64,000 bases of DNA from Escherichia phage Ec_YwIITB1 (PQ356294.1), one strand, 5' to 3'. Counted from the first letter of the stretch, positions 6,273-52,488 are shown. The notes: generated from the sequence alone by a model not told the origin. Translations and numbers: made by a program.

Positions 6273-6280
6273 TTGATTAT

Positions 6281-6294
6281 GGGGCTTCGGCCCC
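6281..6294 (+). other. GC hairpin with UUCG tetraloop directly after gene 18 stop
   Basis: GGGGCTTCGGCCCC. Confidence 0.4.
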
Positions 6295-6311
6295 TATTCT
6301 CGAGGAAACAA

Positions 6312-6929
6312 GTGATTATTTCTAAGTTTGTTAAAGTGAAAATTGTACCATCAAATTTTAAACATTATCAATCAAAGGGTTATAAATTAACACCTCTTGG
6401 AGCGGTTAAACATGGATTTAGGTATTATGAAATTGATGTTAAAGTTGAAGACATTAAAGGTAATACCGCGTATGTAAAATGCCGTTGCGATAAATGTGGA
6501 ATTGAATATAACCAACGCATTGGAAGAAACACTGATATTTGTCGTGATTGCCGTCATAAAGATAAAATGCGCAATAATTCATATGGTTCCGCGAATAAAG
6601 GAAAAACAGTAGAATGTATGCATGGCGTAAATCATCCAAGATGGAACCCAAATAAATCTGAAATGCGTGAATATATTTCATTGGTATATAAAGAAACTCG
6701 TAAGCATAAGAAAATTTGGTCAAAATGGCCAAATGCTGATAAAATAGGAGTGTGCGGTACAAAAGGTGCTTACCAACTTGATCATAAGGTATCTATCAAA
6801 TACGGTTTTGATAATTTAATTCCTGTTGAAATAATTGGCGGTATTAATAATTTAGAAATAATCACTTGGGAATCTAACCGAGAAAAATCAAAAAGAAATA
6901 GTGTAGATCTTTGGGATTTACTAGAATGA
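6312..6929 (+). CDS. HNH-family homing endonuclease (free-standing)
   Basis: ORF open from 6273 (TTG); likelier start GTG 6312 with GAGG 7 nt upstream; Cys cluster CRCDKCG...CRDCRH and H-N-H-like motif DHKVS...NLEIITWESNREKSKRN. Confidence 0.7.
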   Translation: MIISKFVKVKIVPSNFKHYQSKGYKLTPLGAVKHGFRYYEIDVKVEDIKGNTAYVKCRCDKCGIEYNQRIGRNTDICRDCRHKDKMRNNSYGSANKGKTVECMHGVNHPRWNPNKSEMREYISLVYKETRKHKKIWSKWPNADKIGVCGTKGAYQLDHKVSIKYGFDNLIPVEIIGGINNLEIITWESNREKSKRNSVDLWDLLE

Positions 6930-11328: not shown

Positions 11329-11346
11329 TTTTAAAGGTTAACACAA

Positions 11347-12908
11347 ATGACTATCAAAACTAAAGCTGAACTTTTGAACAAATGGAAGCCATTACTGGAA
11401 GGTGAAGGTTTACCGGAAATTGCTAATAGCAAACAAGCGATTATCGCTAAAATCTTTGAAAACCAGGAAAAAGATTTCCAGACAGCTCCAGAGTACAAAG
11501 ACGAAAAAATCGCCCAGGCGTTCGGTTCTTTCTTAACAGAAGCTGAAATCGGTGGTGACCACGGTTACAACGCTACTAACATTGCTGCTGGTCAGACTTC
11601 TGGCGCAGTAACTCAGATTGGCCCAGCTGTTATGGGTATGGTACGTCGTGCTATTCCTAACCTGATTGCTTTCGATATTTGCGGTGTTCAGCCGATGAAT
11701 AGCCCGACTGGCCAGGTATTTGCACTGCGTGCAGTATATGGTAAAGACCCAATCGCTGCTGATGCTAAAGAAGCATTCCACCCAATGTATGGTCCAGATG
11801 CAATGTTCTCTGGTCAGGGTGCTGCTAAGAAATTCGCGCTAGCACACAAACTACTGTAAGTTGGAACCATTTACACCTATTTCTTCCAGGAAACTGGTAC
11901 TGTATATCTGCAAGCTACCTCTAGTTAAAGCAAATTGATACAAGTGCTTCTGACGCAGCTAAATTAGATGCTGAAATTAAGAAACAAATGGAAGCTGGCG
12001 TATTGGTAGAAATCGCTGAAGGTATGGCTACTTCTATCGCTGAACTTCAGGAAGGTTTCAACGGTTCTACCGATAACCCATGGAATGAAATGGGATTCCG
12101 TATCGATAAACAAGTTATCGAAGCTAAATCTCGTCAGCTGAAAGCTGCTTACTCTATCGAATTAGCACAAGACCTCCGCGCTGTTCACGGTATGGATGCT
12201 GATGCTGAACTGTCTGGTATTCTGGCTACCGAAATCATGCTGGAAATCAACCGTGAAGTTGTTGATTGGATTAACTACTCAGCTCAGGTTGGTAAATCTG
12301 GTATGACCCTGACTCCGGGTTCTAAAGCTGGTGTATTTGACTTCCAGGATCCGATTGATATTCGCGGTGCTCGCTGGGCAGGTGAATCCTTTAAAGCTCT
12401 GTTGTTCCAGATTGACAAAGAAGCAGTTGAAATTGCTCGTCAGACCGGTCGTGGTGAAGGTAACTTCATTATCGCTTCCCGTAACGTAGTTAACGTTCTG
12501 GCTTCAGTTGATACTGGCATTTCTTATGCTGCACAGGGTCTGGCTACCGGCTTTAACACTGATACTACCAAGTCAGTATTTGCTGGTGTTCTGGGTGGTA
12601 AATACCGTGTATACATCGACCAGTATGCTAAACAGGATTATTTCACTGTAGGTTATAAAGGTCCGAACGAAATGGATGCTGGTATTTACTACGCTCCATA
12701 TGTAGCTCTGACTCCGCTGCGTGGTTCCGATCCGAAGAACTTCCAACCGGTAATGGGATTCAAAACTCGTTACGGTATCGGTATCAACCCATTTGCAGAA
12801 TCCGCTGCTCAGGCTCCGGCTTCTCGCATCCAAAGCGGTATGCCTTCTATTCTTAATAGCCTTGGTAAAAACGCTTACTTCCGCCGTGTATATGTTAAAG
12901 GTATCTAA
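11347..12908 (+). CDS. 23: major capsid protein gp23; reading frame interrupted between ~11836 and ~11930
   Basis: 170-aa ORF 11347-11859 matches gp23 N-terminus, 306-aa ORF 11988-12908 matches C-terminus; in-frame stops at 11857 and 11926 with three frame changes between. Confidence 0.85.
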
Positions 12909-15866: not shown

Positions 15867-15884
15867 AAGGGGCCGAAGCCCCTT
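15867..15884 (-). terminator. hairpin downstream of hoc
   Basis: AAGGGGCCGAAGCCCCTT. Confidence 0.4.
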
Positions 15885-15894
15885 ATGATTATGA

Positions 15895-17324
15895 TTATGG
15901 ATAGGTATAGATGATACCAGTTTCTAAAGCAGTTTTATGAATGATGTATCCATTGCGTGATTCTTGAACATCAACTTCTGGATAGTCTTTCATCATCTTC
16001 TGAAGAGTGTAACGATGCAGGTAGTATTTACTGTCTGGATCTTCAGTTTTCCAATCTTTACCTTCTTCGGTCATTTTTTGGATTTCATCCATAACCCACC
16101 AGCCGCACCAGATATAAGCCGAAGTACGATGTGGAAGAGGATGAACATAAGGCAATTCACCTTCTGGTTCCGGAGCAACTTTATCAGTTACCTGAACTTG
16201 GCCTGTTGCTTTAACTGTTTTACTATCATAGTCGGTTGCTGTAACGACAGCAGTAACTTCAATAGTTTGACTTCCAATAGATGAGGTGTCAACGGTGTAT
16301 ACATTAGTTGACCCTTCTACAGGAGAAGAATCTTTCTTCCATGAATAAGTAATTTGAGCTGCTTCAGGTGCTCCGTGACATTAGCCGTAAATGTAGCCGA
16401 AGCATCTTGCTGAACGTTAATAGAAGGAGGAGTCAATGTAACCTGTGGATTCATTGTCTTCTTATTAACTGTCAATGATACTTCATTAGAAGTAACTTCC
16501 TTTGCATCATAATTTTCAGCCGTTACTTGGGCTACACACTTAACTGTTTTAGCTCCAACTGTGGTAGGAGTATAGTTAAATGTAGTAGTAGTTTCTCCAT
16601 CGACCAGAGAACCGTCAACATACCACTGATACGTAGCAGACGCTCCTGGTGGCTGTGAAGCCAAGGTAGCAGTAAATTGAACTGGGGTTCCAATAACTCC
16701 TGCTGGAGGATTAGCAGGAGTTACGGCTAACGTAGTTGTCTGTGTTTTCTTATTAACAGTCAGTGACACTTCATTAGAAGTAACTTCCTTTGCATCATAA
16801 TCTGTCGCGGTTACTTGAGCTACACACTTAATTGTTTTAACTCCGCTTGCGTCAGGAGTGTAATTGAATGTAGTGCCAGTTGCTTCGCCCACAGGAGAAC
16901 CGTCAACGTGCCATTGATACGTAGCGTTTGCACTTGGTGGCTGTGAAGCTAAGGCAGCGGTAAATTCAATTGGAGTTCCAATCACTCCAGCATCAGGGCT
17001 ACCAGGAGTTACAGCTAAAATAGTTGTTTGTGTCTTATTTTGAACCGTGATAGTTGTCGTAGTTTCTGCTGTTTCAGGTTCAGGTTCAGATTCAGATTCT
17101 GGAACTGTATTTGTTGCAACGACTTTAATAGTCTTTTGACCTGCAGGTCCTTTTAATACATAGCCAAAAGTTGCCGCTTCTCCATCTTGCGGAACATTAT
17201 CTACACTCCAAGCATAGGTAATAGTTCCATCTCCAGTTTCACCACTGGGTGTAGCAGTAAACTGCTTGGTTTCATCAATAACTCCTGTTGGGGTTTTAGG
17301 AGTTATATCAACTGTAAAAGTCAT
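15895..17324 (-). CDS. hoc: Hoc outer capsid protein with extra tandem Ig-like domain; frameshifted near 16371-16375
   Basis: 335-aa ORF 16317-17324 (starts MTFTVDITPKT) plus 86-aa ORF 15895-16155 matching the Hoc C-terminus (ends GIIYTYP); alternate frame between them reads the expected Hoc sequence. Confidence 0.85.
16464..17039 (-). repeat. tandem in-frame duplication (~288 bp unit) encoding two Ig-like domains within hoc
   Basis: Two consecutive ~96-aa blocks (ILAVTPGSPDAGVIGTPIEFTA... and TLAVTPANPPAGVIGTPVQFTA...) with matching DNA repeat; boundaries approximate. Confidence 0.7.
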
Positions 17325-28554: not shown

Positions 28555-30611
28555 TACATCTTGAACTTTTTAGACATTCCGTTGATGTTAACCAAAGAAG
28601 CCAAGATTTGAGAAACTTCGTTTTCCTCTTCTTTTGATTCTTCTACAAGGAATTGATTAAACCCAGCCATTGGACGAACTTCACCAGTTTCCATTAGATG
28701 ATCGCCATCATATACCGATTCTTCTAATTGTTCAGAAGGAGGAACGATTGTGCCTTCAATTAGATACTTGTTATAAGCAGTTTCTTTCATCATGTACGTG
28801 CTCACTTTATTAATCTTCAGCAAAATTCCACGTGGTAGAATAACTTCAGCTTCTGATGGAAATCCTGATAAATGACCTGGAACGATAACTTTGATTCGCT
28901 CAGCCCCTTTAATTACCATACCTACGCTAGCTTCAGCATCTTCATTAGCATATGCAGAATGACTACCCATATGCATTAAATCTTCAGCATCAACAGAACC
29001 TTCTCCTTCACCAGAAAATACTGCGCCGGAATCATCTAGAGCCATATAGTTTTTACCATGCTCACCGAAGATATTTGGTTTAAGCGATGTTGATACGAAG
29101 TTCTTGAAATAGAACATTTTATTTTCAATATTATGGCGTAAAGTTTTAAAAGTAACTTCTTGTCCACGATAAAGCGTAATTCCCGGAGGAAGAACTGAAC
29201 CTTTGGCAAAGGCAGAATCCAGCGTCTCGATGTGTTTAATAGCTCGTTCCATATATTCTTCACGGGTAGAATCTGGTTTACCCAAGAGGAACGAGTTCAT
29301 TTCAACATATGAATCTGCACAATAATCTTCAATTACAACAGACTCAGCCTGAGTTAATCCTTTTGGAGTTACTTCAGTGCTTGCGTATTCATATGCCTGA
29401 GCAGCAGATTCATTAATCAATTTATAAATGCCATTCATGACAAATTGAATAATAGCTACCTTTTCGTCTGGCGTAGCTTTAGAACCTTTAACTAAATCAT
29501 TGATAATTTTCTTAATAACATCAAAGCTATTAGAAATATTAATGTCAGCGAGATCGCTCAAAATTTTATCGGTTTTATAATCAAAAAATTCTTTATTCTT
29601 TAAATATTCTTGAGAACCTTGATATGTTATATCGCTCTGCAGTCTGATAGACGGATCGCGTAAACGTGCATGGGCCAATGCAATATGATTTCGGAGGCTT
29701 TCTAGTTCATAATCGTTAGATTTAAAACGAGAAGCACTTCTCATACCACCGATAGCTCCTTTGCTGAAGTTGGAACCAATCTGAATAACGCCAGAGTTCA
29801 TTGGTCCTTCTGCTTTATATACCGGAACTTTAGATTCAAACTCTTGATATTTCTTGGCGGCGAAGCTATCGCCCTGAAGTGAAGCATCGACAGTAGAATA
29901 TTGAGCTTGCGCTGCCAATCGACGACTAATTTTAGTTTTCTGAATAACAGCTTGATCCGTGCGCTTATCATTTTCTAAAGCAATAGAAGCAGCAACAGCA
30001 ACAGCTTTAGGAACAGCATTACCTGTTTTAACATCTACATAAACATCACCAACCTTTGATTCAACTTTTGTGAATAACTCAGTTGAAATAGGAGGTACAC
30101 CTGGAATGTCTTCTAAATTGGCATTTTTACGGTAAACCATAATATATGCATACTTTTTATCATAATCCCAGATTTCCTTTAAAAGAACATATCGACCTGC
30201 TCCTTTAGTACGTACTAAACGGTCAGCAATAACTTGCATCTGACGAGCTGCGCCATTTGTTTTACTTTTTAGTACGCGGAATAGGCATGCATCAATTTTA
30301 TACTGTTTCATTGTTTGAAGAGCAGTATCAAAAACCGCATTAATGACACCAATTGGATTTCCACCCAAGTTTTTAAGTTTAACTAATGATAGTTTCTCAT
30401 TAACACCTATCATTACGATATGCATCATTTTATCGCCTGGCTTAACGTTTTTATTTGTATCACCGCCAGAGGTGTATGTACAAAATCTAAATCCAGGAAG
30501 CACACTTTCTTCGCCGGCTTGAATAGCAAAAATTTGAGGTATTTTATGCTTAGGATTTAAGTTAACAACCGGCGCCGAAGCGCCGTCAAATAATTCTGTA
30601 ATAAGTTCCAT
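28554..30611 (-). CDS. Alt-like ADP-ribosyltransferase, second paralog
   Basis: 685-aa ORF; N-terminal ~230 aa closely similar to the adjacent Alt; ART-like motifs YRGQ, FVSTSL, EAEVILPRG. Confidence 0.8.
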   Translation of the reverse strand: MELITELFDGASAPVVNLNPKHKIPQIFAIQAGEESVLPGFRFCTYTSGGDTNKNVKPGDKMMHIVMIGVNEKLSLVKLKNLGGNPIGVINAVFDTALQTMKQYKIDACLFRVLKSKTNGAARQMQVIADRLVRTKGAGRYVLLKEIWDYDKKYAYIMVYRKNANLEDIPGVPPISTELFTKVESKVGDVYVDVKTGNAVPKAVAVAASIALENDKRTDQAVIQKTKISRRLAAQAQYSTVDASLQGDSFAAKKYQEFESKVPVYKAEGPMNSGVIQIGSNFSKGAIGGMRSASRFKSNDYELESLRNHIALAHARLRDPSIRLQSDITYQGSQEYLKNKEFFDYKTDKILSDLADINISNSFDVIKKIINDLVKGSKATPDEKVAIIQFVMNGIYKLINESAAQAYEYASTEVTPKGLTQAESVVIEDYCADSYVEMNSFLLGKPDSTREEYMERAIKHIETLDSAFAKGSVLPPGITLYRGQEVTFKTLRHNIENKMFYFKNFVSTSLKPNIFGEHGKNYMALDDSGAVFSGEGEGSVDAEDLMHMGSHSAYANEDAEASVGMVIKGAERIKVIVPGHLSGFPSEAEVILPRGILLKINKVSTYMMKETAYNKYLIEGTIVPPSEQLEESVYDGDHLMETGEVRPMAGFNQFLVEESKEEENEVSQILASLVNINGMSKKFKM

Positions 30612-30614
30612 GAT

Positions 30615-32669
30615 TTATCCTTGAACGAACTTGTAAGGCATGTTTGTAATATCTATGCAAGACGCAATAATTCCAAGAGATGATTCTACTTTTTGTTTAA
30701 CATTTGATGAAACAAATGATGCAAAGTCAACTCTGTCTTCTATTTCAATATCATCTGTCATTGCAACTACTTCACCAGTTTCCATTAGACGATCACCGTC
30801 ATAAATTACTGATTCGGTGAGTTCTTCGGTAGTCATAACTTCAGCTTGAATAAGCTTGTTGTTAGTTTTAGCTGTTCCATCATTGTAAGATGCGTCGGTT
30901 ATTTTATTGACTTTGACCATCAATCCACGCGGCAAAATGACTTCCATTTCATTTGAAGGCGCTAAACTTCCACCTGGTAAAACAACGTTGACTTTATCAG
31001 CCCCAGTAATAACCCATCCAATTCCAACTAAATTATCGCTAGAATTAACAAGTCCTTCATCGTTTTTATCGATAGAAATGTTTAGACGCTTTTCGTCTGG
31101 TAAAACACCCACAGCTGAATCAGTCATCCAAGTACCAAAAATGTTTGGATATAATGATGTTGATACAAAATTTCTAAAATAAAAAACTCGATTTTTTACC
31201 AATGCTTCATATATTGAAGGAGCAGTCATGCTTTGAGCACGATAAACTGTAATGCCTTCTGGTATACGGTCACCATTTTCAAAGGCTGAATCTAAATTAT
31301 TTATCGCAGATTCAATTTCTTTTTCACTCATTACCTCATATCGTTCTGGATTATATAATCCCAAAAGAGCATTATTCATGTCTACATATCCTGAACCTAC
31401 GTATTCACGAATTCCGCGTTTTTGTGCCGGTGTGTATTTAGATGAATCTTTATTTTCGACTATAGAATGCAATGACCATCCAACGGTAAGAGCATATCCA
31501 CGTAATTCTCTTCGAATAATCTTTGTTTTTATTGCATTCCAAGAATTTTGCACTAACTCATTCGCAGCATCTTGATTTAAATGCGAATGCTTGTTAATAT
31601 TTCTTTCTAACCAAGCACCTTTATATTTTTCTAAAGTATCATCAACTATAGAAGCAATAGTTTCTAAAGTTTTTATTGAAGTAATAGATTCTTTTCGTAA
31701 TCTTTCTAAAGCTTTATTTTTTATTTCTGCATTAACATCAGATTCTTTATCTTCAGGAATTATAGAAGCTTCTCTGAATGCCATTCCAGCTGTAACACTA
31801 TTAAGAGCATTCTCTAATGCAAATCCTGAAGTAGAAATAACAGTTAATTCGTTAGCATCAGAAATTAAAGGCGCGTCAGCGGGTTTATTTAATTCTGCTG
31901 CTGAAGCCTCAAATTTTTGAAACATTGGTGTTTCAAATCTAGAAGATTCTAATGATTGACTTTGTGCAATTGCTCTACGGGAAATTTTAACTTTAACGAT
32001 TACAGCTTGGTCAGAACGTTTATCGTTTTCTTGCGCAATAGATGCAGCAATGGCCTCATTTTTAGTTACTTGAGCTCCGGTATCTTTATTGATATAAACA
32101 TCGCCGACTTTCGATTCAACTTTAGTAAAGAGCTCTGTACTAATTTCAGGAACTCCTGGAATGTCTTCTAATGATACATTTTTGCGATGTATAAGAATAT
32201 ATGCATACTTTTTATCGTAATCCCAGAGTTCCTTAAGAAGGACGTATCTGCCACCTGAACGACTACGGATAAGTCTATCAGCAATAAGTTGAATTTGACG
32301 AGCTTGACCAGCAGTTTTAGACTTAAGAATACGGAGCATGCAGGCATCAATTTTATACTGACGCATCGTTTGCATTGCAACAGTAAAAACTGAATTGATA
32401 TAATTAATTGGGCTTGGACCGAGACCTTTTAATTTAGCGATTGAACCTTTAGCAGTTAATGTAAAAGGAACAATATGCATCATTTTATCGCCCATCTTTA
32501 AATCGCGATTAGTATCACCTCCAGATGTGTAGGTACATAAACGAAAACCTGGTTGTTCAATTGCGTCATCAACATGAACTGAAAAAATTTGCGGTATTTT
32601 CTTCTTTGGATTTAAGTTTGTAATCGGAAGAGTAGTATCTTCGTCAAATAATTCTGTAATGAGTTCCAT
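30615..32669 (-). CDS. alt: Alt ADP-ribosyltransferase (virion-packaged)
   Basis: ORF open from 32672 (MMELITE); second ATG 32669 better spaced from GAGGA; motifs YRAQ, FVSTSL, EMEVILPRG; late promoter upstream. Confidence 0.85.
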   Translation of the reverse strand: MELITELFDEDTTLPITNLNPKKKIPQIFSVHVDDAIEQPGFRLCTYTSGGDTNRDLKMGDKMMHIVPFTLTAKGSIAKLKGLGPSPINYINSVFTVAMQTMRQYKIDACMLRILKSKTAGQARQIQLIADRLIRSRSGGRYVLLKELWDYDKKYAYILIHRKNVSLEDIPGVPEISTELFTKVESKVGDVYINKDTGAQVTKNEAIAASIAQENDKRSDQAVIVKVKISRRAIAQSQSLESSRFETPMFQKFEASAAELNKPADAPLISDANELTVISTSGFALENALNSVTAGMAFREASIIPEDKESDVNAEIKNKALERLRKESITSIKTLETIASIVDDTLEKYKGAWLERNINKHSHLNQDAANELVQNSWNAIKTKIIRRELRGYALTVGWSLHSIVENKDSSKYTPAQKRGIREYVGSGYVDMNNALLGLYNPERYEVMSEKEIESAINNLDSAFENGDRIPEGITVYRAQSMTAPSIYEALVKNRVFYFRNFVSTSLYPNIFGTWMTDSAVGVLPDEKRLNISIDKNDEGLVNSSDNLVGIGWVITGADKVNVVLPGGSLAPSNEMEVILPRGLMVKVNKITDASYNDGTAKTNNKLIQAEVMTTEELTESVIYDGDRLMETGEVVAMTDDIEIEDRVDFASFVSSNVKQKVESSLGIIASCIDITNMPYKFVQG

Positions 32670-32692
32670 CATATCCTCTCTAGTGTTTATTC

Positions 32693-32700
32693 TATTTATA
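32693..32700 (-). promoter_or_regulatory. late promoter for alt
   Basis: TATAAATA on reverse strand about 21 nt before the alt start. Confidence 0.55.
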
Positions 32701-32705
32701 AAATT

Positions 32706-32723
32706 AAAGGCCCGAAGGCCTTT
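32706..32723 (-). terminator. hairpin upstream of alt
   Basis: AAAGGCCCGAAGGCCTTT. Confidence 0.35.
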
Positions 32724-32910
32724 AATAATCTATTGGTAAGAGAGTACGATATATTTCAAACTTTGGACCTTTTTCATAGGTATCAAATGTTTCTGTGAAT
32801 TTATTATAAGCATATGCATCTATAAATTCAATCATAATTTGTGATACAGAAGTAGAAACATCTCCACCTTCTTTTTGAGCCACGACAATTGTTTCTAAAT
32901 AAGCTTTCAT
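32722..32910 (-). CDS. hypothetical protein
   Basis: 62-aa ORF overlapping ligase stop. Confidence 0.55.
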   Translation of the reverse strand: MKAYLETIVVAQKEGGDVSTSVSQIMIEFIDAYAYNKFTETFDTYEKGPKFEIYRTLLPIDY

Positions 32911-49352: not shown

Positions 49353-49669
49353 AAGTCCTCAACTTGAAAATCGTCTTTAAACAATCGGTTAACTATATGA
49401 GCTATTATATCACCATGACACGGCTTTGGTTTACATGTGCATCCTAGCCTCATTCCACGTAAAGGCTCTAAATGTGCTTTAGTTATTTCTCCGGATTTAA
49501 TTCGACGTATAAAATCTTTTTTGAATAATTCAATGGCAGCCTCCCGGCTGCCAGCATCTTTACCGACGTAATTTCCCCAAAATGTACCACGGTGAATATT
49601 AACATCAAAGTCGGATTTATATTTATTCACTACCTGACATAGACGGCCCGCGCGGTGATAATTCGTCAT
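49343..49669 (-). CDS. hypothetical protein with CxC...CH motif (nrdA.1 position)
   Basis: 108-aa ORF. Confidence 0.65.
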
Positions 49670-50770: not shown

Positions 50771-51795
<1,025 letters not shown>

Positions 51796-52102: not shown

Positions 52103-52488
52103 CTACTTTTTGAAAGTTTTTCGCAAAAGTTCAATGATTTCATCTACATTGTTTTCATCAACAATGCAGTGAATTTTTGTTACGCCAGAAACCTTGTCTT
52201 CGACTTCATCTTCTTCGGAAGTCGGTTCTTTATACTCACGAAAACAATGAAATTCGTCTTCGCAAATTTCTAAAAGTCTATCTTTGAGGTAAAAATGCTT
52301 TCCGTTAGCGCACAAATGATTTCGGTTACATAATCAAAGCCATCTAAATTTGATATTGATTTAACTTCAAACCAACCACCATTTTCTTGAATGATGCCGA
52401 CCATATTAGTATTTGATGAACTAATATCAATGAAAGATTTAATACGATGTATCAATAAGTCTTGGAACAAGTTCATACTTTTTGCCAA
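52103..52488 (-). CDS. hypothetical protein (frd.3 position), frameshifted near 52302-52314
   Basis: 72-aa and 70-aa ORFs overlapping in different frames; together one ~128-aa product. Confidence 0.55.

Follow-up and report, generated by a model that had tools for sequence, protein, structure and literature searches.

A hoc gene of the common long form in a close relative of phage T4, most likely interrupted by a sequence or assembly error

The 64,000-nucleotide stretch of DNA analysed here (hereafter, the window) carries, with a probability that we put at roughly 0.8, the hoc gene of a Tequatrovirus closely related to T4 in its common long form, interrupted by a frame break for which an error of sequencing or assembly is the likeliest cause. 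The gene had been named hoc in the initial annotation, and alignment, profile match and synteny all supported this assignment. At the DNA level, the window gene aligned collinearly from end to end with the hoc genes of Killian, sb4, and T4, the exceptions being a 288-nt unit that is missing from T4, a 12-nt insertion in a linker, and a 1-nt deletion. A profile derived from homologs of the corrected protein together with the protein itself matched the solved Hoc chain of T4 (5vf3_Z, 376 aa) with an E value of 8.8e-257. Comparison of the open reading frames (ORFs) of the window with the annotations of T4 and Ec_MI-02 gave the gene order inh-hoc-24.3-24.2-rnlB, which is the order of T4, and the gene was found where hoc belongs, between inh and 24.3/rnlB and next to uvsW and gene 24. 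The initial annotation had also predicted an allele of ~476 aa. This length was recovered once a single G was restored at 16373-16374, bringing hoc to 1431 nt and its product to 476 aa, but it does not apply to the gene as written, in which the ORF covers 16317-17324, encodes 335 aa, and ends at a TAG codon at 16317-16319.

After correction of the frame, the encoded protein displayed a five-domain architecture (Table 1). The string of Ig-like domains that characterizes the N-terminal part of Hoc was recovered by Pfam, by a structural model of the homolog P0009, and by Foldseek. In the corrected protein, Pfam placed Ig_3 and I-set matches at residues 293-378, a PKD match at residues 200-267, within unit B (E = 6.9e-8), and partial BiPBP_C and Ig_2 matches to unit A at residues 132-181. 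The conserved capsid-binding residues YVHP, R, WW, and ESRNG, as named in passages of PMC10385173, could all be read in the C-terminal domain (ELPYVHPLPHRTSAYIWCGWWVMDE...VQESRNGY at 15895-16179).

Table 1. Features of hoc and of the other frame-broken genes in the window
Feature	Position	Strand	Basis or detail
Whole hoc gene	15895-17324	-	ATG at 17324, TAA at 15895-15897; 1430 nt as written
Ig-like domain 1 and linker to domain 2	17031-17324	-	Codons 1-98; translation
Hexanucleotide repeat GAATCT/GAACCT (coding strand) in the domain 1-2 linker	17073-17099	-	Tandem Repeats Finder, period 6, 4.5 copies
Tandem unit A, alpha-type domain-2 cassette	16743-17030	-	Codons 99-194
Tandem unit B, gamma-type domain-2 cassette	16455-16742	-	Codons 195-290
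Ig-like domain 3, with the frameshift inside	16180-16454	-	Pfam; alignment with T4, Killian, and sb4
1-nt deletion, GGG to GG	16373-16374	-	Alignment; three-frame translation
C-terminal capsid-binding domain, VAPEPEGELPYVHPLPHR...ESRNGY...TYP	15895-16179	-	Intact, but in a different frame from the start codon as written
gp23, essential major capsid gene	11335-12905	+	N-terminal part in frame 1 (11335-11856), C-terminal part in frame 3 (11925-12905)
nrdB	46543		Clean 4-nt deletion relative to Ec_MI-02
frd	51185-51260		Scrambled patch with several indels relative to Ec_MI-02
Hypothetical gene	52313-52353		Short patch with several indels relative to Ec_MI-02

The hoc gene of the window carries one Ig-like domain more than that of T4, yet the two-unit allele is an ordinary one. 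The initial annotation had implied an unusual allele, a view that did not hold, since intact two-unit Hoc proteins of 472 aa are annotated in many Tequatrovirus genomes. Both Killian and sb4, for example, carry an intact hoc coding sequence (CDS) of 1419 nt that encodes 472 aa and includes both units. Altogether, 653 phage records matched the hoc region, and units were counted in 60 of them, evenly spaced down the ranking, from how far the match extended in each record and into how many pieces it was divided; BLAST coverage was unfit for these counts, as the two halves of the query falling on a single subject unit were joined and reported as 100% coverage. Two units, seen as a single piece of ~1437-1453 nt, were present in 22 of the 60 sampled records (~37%), including wV7, PP01, and Yersinia phage PST, and T2, RB3, RB59, and RB68 were found in the same sample with a one-unit Hoc. 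The two-unit span was also observed in HP3, ime09, pSs-1, and Sf21 among the best-ranked records. At the protein level, the best 120 matches comprised at least 30 clusters of 468-472 aa, with ~440 member sequences, and at least eight clusters of 568-570 aa, which correspond to three units, alongside the 376-aa class, such that the length of Hoc rises in steps of 96 aa. Differences in domain number are themselves already published, and two-unit Hoc is already publicly annotated. Passages of PMC10385173 describe Hoc homologs with 1 to 10 Ig-like domains, with 10 in Serratia phage Muldoon and 1 in PG7, and a three-domain Hoc from PhiPNJ-9 that does not have domain 3 appears in a passage of PMC11853027. 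A literature search for an explicit account of the 472-aa Tequatrovirus Hoc returned none that was relevant, and the searched passages of PMC10385173 and PMC11853027 did not discuss a series of one-, two-, and three-cassette Tequatrovirus proteins.

Unlike these intact genes, the window copy has a broken reading frame. On the coding strand, the site reads ACGGAGCACC in the window, ACTGGAGCACC in sb4, and ACGGGTGCTCC in T4, and the best eight phage matches to 16300-16450 each span 152 nt, versus 151 nt in the window. As a result of the deletion, the Hoc sequence is lost after ...ATFTANVT and is followed by 15 unrelated residues and a stop codon. The remainder of Hoc (GAPEAAQITYSWKKD...ELPYVHPLPHR...ESRNGY...TYP) stays open in another frame up to the TAA codon at 15895-15897, and the open frame at 15898-16380 shares 96% identity with residues 219-376 of the Ec_MI-02 protein. 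The initial annotation suggested that the number of domains could change capsid display, and it gave too little weight to the frame break. In the gene as written, the Ig domains share no continuous frame with the capsid-binding domain and the two are not joined, so any statement about display holds only if the deletion is a sequence error.

Sequence or assembly error is, in our assessment, considerably more probable for this deletion than a real mutation. To examine the reading frames of the whole window, 84 annotated CDSs of Ec_MI-02 were compared with its stop-to-stop frames and with a list of non-triplet indels. Besides hoc, four of the 84 reference CDSs were frame-broken, namely, gp23, nrdB, frd, and one hypothetical gene. 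The break in gp23 splits an N-terminal stretch of 163 codons from a C-terminal stretch of 324 codons, with three frame changes within 11838-11931. These changes fall in a divergent patch of ~95 nt, with only 90% identity to the closest among 1070 phage records and a net shortfall of 4 nt, and the best matches in the phage collection did not contain this patch. Such breaks in gp23 are incompatible with a viable phage; the window must therefore contain indel errors, which makes it likelier that the deletion in hoc is one of them. Weighing against an error, the deletion site is a run of only three G and is not a classic site of long-homopolymer error. A T7 to T6 change in a run at 49523, relative to Ec_MI-02, was listed with the frame-breaking indels and patches. 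Given that frame-breaking indels extend to the major capsid gene of the window, reads would be needed before this copy could support any biological conclusion on Hoc display.

An alternative that we consider unlikely is that the frameshift is real and that the phage is a natural hoc-null mutant. Its product would be a soluble fragment of 335 aa, made of domain 1, both cassettes, half of domain 3, and the 15 out-of-frame residues, which would be unable to attach to the capsid and would leave virions bare of Hoc. Loss of the gene can be tolerated, as hoc is non-essential in the laboratory and a spontaneous T4 nonsense mutant, HAP1, is viable (PMC10580926), and the Hoc of BYEP02 (P0086) is likewise frameshifted in its C-terminal domain. 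In both HAP1 and BYEP02, as in the window, the hoc frame breaks off short of a complete capsid-binding domain, but the HAP1 mutant is experimentally confirmed, whereas the window break is unverified and lies among other evident indel errors. That hoc is annotated in two to three pieces in at least 5 of the 60 sampled records also favours a real mutation, as does the fact that the deletion is private to the window, being found in none of the best matches among the phage records. The presence of frame breaks in gp23, nrdB, frd, and one further gene of the same window argues against it, and the downstream frame, at 96% identity and with no stop codon, bears no trace of decay. Moreover, the exact 335-aa truncated product was not on record in a large public assembly collection. 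Whether real or erroneous in each case, an interrupted hoc is not rare in public records; genes in two or three pieces were noted in T2 (LC348380), ACG-C40 (NC_019399), SfPhi01 (LC465543), IME537 (MT179807), and PM105 (MZ234041).

It is far less probable still that the site serves programmed ribosomal frameshifting or acts as a contingency locus prone to slippage, by which Hoc display would be turned on and off. A recent preprint describes homopolymer contingency loci in T2 and T4 (bioRxiv 10.1101/2025.10.21.683753), and being able to switch Hoc reversibly would make biological sense; the only occurrence of 'Hoc' in the preprint, however, was within an author name (Hochhauser) in its references. 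However, the site (...GTC ACG GAG CAC..., GTCACGGAGCACC) offers only a GG(G) run, short of the homopolymer of at least 6 nt used as a criterion in that study (bioRxiv 10.1101/2025.10.21.683753), and holds no X XXY YYZ heptamer. A programmed shift would also have few codons in which to occur, as the downstream frame has a TAA codon just upstream of the site, and the sequence is in frame in all close relatives.

The long form of the gene is due to two tandem units. Tandem Repeats Finder detected one array at 16455-17036, with a period of 288, 2.0 copies, 80% matches, and a score of 766, and the tandem repeat is far beyond chance. Two paralogous blocks of ~96 aa encoded by a tandem repeat of ~288 bp had been proposed in the initial annotation at 16464-17039; repeat finding and translation confirmed the blocks and the array, whereas the coordinates proved to be shifted by 9 nt from those of the in-register copies, which cover 16455-17030 and are 80% identical in DNA sequence. 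Translated from the minus strand, the blocks read QTTILAVTPGSPDAGVIGTPIEF...SNEVSLTVNKKT and QTTTLAVTPANPPAGVIGTPVQF...SNEVSLTVNKKT. Units A and B are each 96 aa long, share 77% amino acid identity, begin with QTT(I/T)LAVTP, and end with SNEVSLTVNKKT. The conserved ends of the cassettes are QTTTLAVTP on the 5′ side and VTSNEVSLTVNKKT on the 3′ side, and a run of 34 identical nucleotides lies near the 3′ end of both units.

The two units differ at 58 of 288 positions, with a dS of 0.55, a dN of 0.15, and a dN/dS of 0.28. This dN/dS value indicates that both units are under purifying selection, and the dS between them implies that the duplication long predates the divergence of these phages and did not occur recently in the phage of the window. 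Comparisons with the orthologous units of Killian and sb4 gave dN/dS values of 0.13-0.44. Unit A, which is the unit missing from both T4 and Ec_MI-02, is 97.6% identical in DNA sequence to the first unit of sb4 and 93% identical to that of Killian (dN/dS 0.31-0.44). Unit B is 95.5% identical in DNA sequence to the sole domain-2 unit of Ec_MI-02, to which it is orthologous, and 82% identical to domain 2 of T4. As the initial annotation had stated, the T4 protein has 376 aa and a single such unit: its gene (NC_000866, 110187-111317) measures 1131 nt and aligns to the window with a clean gap of 288 nt, and T4 does not already hold both blocks. That one domain-2 unit was simply written twice during assembly is barely conceivable, even though tandem repeats can mis-assemble and the window contains other sequence errors, because units that differ at 58 of 288 positions with a dS of 0.55 do not come from one template and because each has its own ortholog (93-98%), in the same order, in the intact ORFs of the independently sequenced Killian and sb4, which excludes an artefact of this kind, including repeat collapse, as far as sequence comparison allows.

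To place the two units among those of other phages, the domain-2 region of 120 Hoc proteins, of T4 Hoc, and of the corrected window protein was cut into 96-aa units and typed. Average-linkage clustering of these 96-aa blocks, taken from cluster representatives at 90% identity, resolved the 122 sequences into three main cassette types, alpha, beta (the T4 type), and gamma, although recombination inside cassettes could blur these types. Single-cassette architectures were the most frequent for alpha (43 sequences) and beta (32 sequences), with gamma found by itself in 4 sequences. Two-cassette architectures comprised alpha-beta (25 sequences), alpha-gamma (5 sequences), and beta-gamma (1 sequence), and three cassettes were arranged as alpha-beta-gamma (6 sequences) or alpha-beta-beta (2 sequences). 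Alpha preceded beta, and beta preceded gamma, without exception in the 122 sequences. The window protein is alpha-gamma, as are P0009, P0011, P0013, and P0086. Ec_MI-02, the closest genome overall (96.9% identity over 24 kb), nevertheless encodes a gamma-only Hoc of 376 aa, and the alpha-gamma array of the window thus shows that nearly identical backbones can hold different sets of cassettes.

These observations lead us to propose, tentatively and with slightly less than even confidence, that the domain-2 slot is an ordered array of three anciently diverged cassette types, the members of which would have been gained and lost repeatedly to yield at least eight architectures and would tune both the length of the fibre and its ligand repertoire. 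Whole cassettes may be gained or lost in frame by unequal homologous recombination, for which the nearly identical cassette ends, with their 34-nt identical run, would provide a plausible substrate. No description of an ordered cassette array was found in the literature searched, and the ordered three-cassette pattern is a population-level description of modest interest. The idea that T4 domain 2 arose by deletion from units A and B was also considered and rejected. The N-terminal part of the T4 domain is B-like and its C-terminal part A-like, which is the opposite of what a simple crossover between A and B would leave, and typing assigns T4 to the third type, beta.

A second source of length variation lies in the linker between domains 1 and 2. 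The hexanucleotide repeat of the window exceeds that of Killian, sb4, and T4 by 12 nt and encodes the linker TVPESESEPEPETAETTT. Among 121 Hoc sequences, the 18-aa ESESEPEPE linker was found in the window alone, the other linkers being 14, 16, or 17 aa long, and linker length in Hoc appears to vary by repeat slippage. Another short repeat was noted at the end of the gene, where a TTATGA hexamer is present in 2.8 copies at 15883-15899, directly 3′ of the hoc stop codon. Read on the coding strand, it corresponds to TAA TCA TAA TCA TAA and is 7 nt longer than in Ec_MI-02.

The structural nature of the extra unit was evaluated with an AlphaFold2 model of P0009, an alpha-gamma homolog that is 92% identical to the corrected window protein, computed from an alignment of 40 sequences. 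The model (mean pLDDT of 85) comprised four all-beta domains with a beta-sandwich fold at residues 4-91, 99-187, 194-283, and 290-376. Averaged in blocks of 10 residues, pLDDT ranged from 81 to 96 over residues 1-380 and was mostly at least 90, with domain 1 (4-91) at ~90, whereas the C-terminal domain contained helices and was of low confidence (pLDDT 41-66). The best matches of the model in the PDB, as found by Foldseek, were four-Ig-domain fragments of Dscam1, Sidekick-2, and ICAM-5. According to this model, the extra unit amounts to one more complete Ig-like domain.

Capsid display on T4 relies chiefly on Hoc as its scaffold, and the protein has also been proposed to hold T4-like phages in mucus. 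By analogy with work on T4 and RB49, including passages of PMC10385173, the C-terminal domain would dock at the centre of each hexamer of gp23, the major capsid protein, and the Ig string would project outward as a monomeric fibre. A fourth Ig domain may then make this fibre one module longer and, if the analogy extends that far, could add a variable surface for weak binding to mucin glycans or to cell surfaces. Natural alleles with one, two, or three modules are useful when comparing the adhesion, immunogenicity, and display capacity of therapeutic Tequatroviruses.

Compared with T4 Hoc (NP_049793, 376 aa, 5vf3_Z), the window gene is the same gene at the same genomic position. The two proteins have in common domain 1, one domain-2 unit, domain 3, and the capsid-binding domain, with high sequence identity outside the extra unit. 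They differ in that T4 has a single beta cassette, whereas the window has an alpha and a gamma cassette that are 78% and 81% identical, respectively, to T4 domain 2 at the amino acid level, and the window gene further differs by a linker that is 4 aa longer and by the 1-nt deletion. The closest counterparts in architecture are the 472-aa Hoc proteins of Killian (WEU67952), the Shigella phage sb4 (XOD32479), sb1, pSs-1, HP3, wV7, PP01, and Sf21 (P0009-P0037), which have the same five domains and share 87-92% identity with the corrected protein of the window. The genes of this class are intact, in contrast to the broken gene of the window, and none carries the 18-aa ESESEPEPE linker. Two-cassette alleles are mostly alpha-beta (25 clusters), and the alpha-gamma arrangement of the window is less frequent (5 clusters).

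The three-cassette Hoc proteins of 568-570 aa, encoded by Escherichia phages UGKSEcP1 and UGKSEcP2 (P0001-P0008), draw on the same cassette family in the same order as the window, with an alpha-beta-gamma array. Unit B of the window is 96% identical to the third cassette of these proteins, and the first cassette of P0001 shares 93% identity with unit A. The three-cassette proteins differ by the beta cassette placed between alpha and gamma, which the window does not have. Muldoon, PG7, and PhiPNJ-9, as presented in passages of PMC10385173 and PMC11853027, follow the same principle of a conserved capsid-binding domain combined with a variable number of Ig-like modules, but their Hoc proteins are distant homologs or are missing a different domain.

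Two further observations were made elsewhere in the window. A 218-aa ORF at 6273-6929 on the plus strand, located between gp18 (tail sheath) and gp19 (tail tube), contains an HNH-like motif (...QLDHKVSIKYGF...ITWESNREK) and is not found at the gp18-gp19 position in Ec_MI-02; it looks like the insertion of a free-standing homing endonuclease. Two adjacent alt-like ADP-ribosyltransferase genes encoding ~685 aa each occupy 28557-32729 on the minus strand. They form a tandem pair of paralogs with ~69% DNA identity over 700 nt, and the same pair is present in Ec_MI-02.
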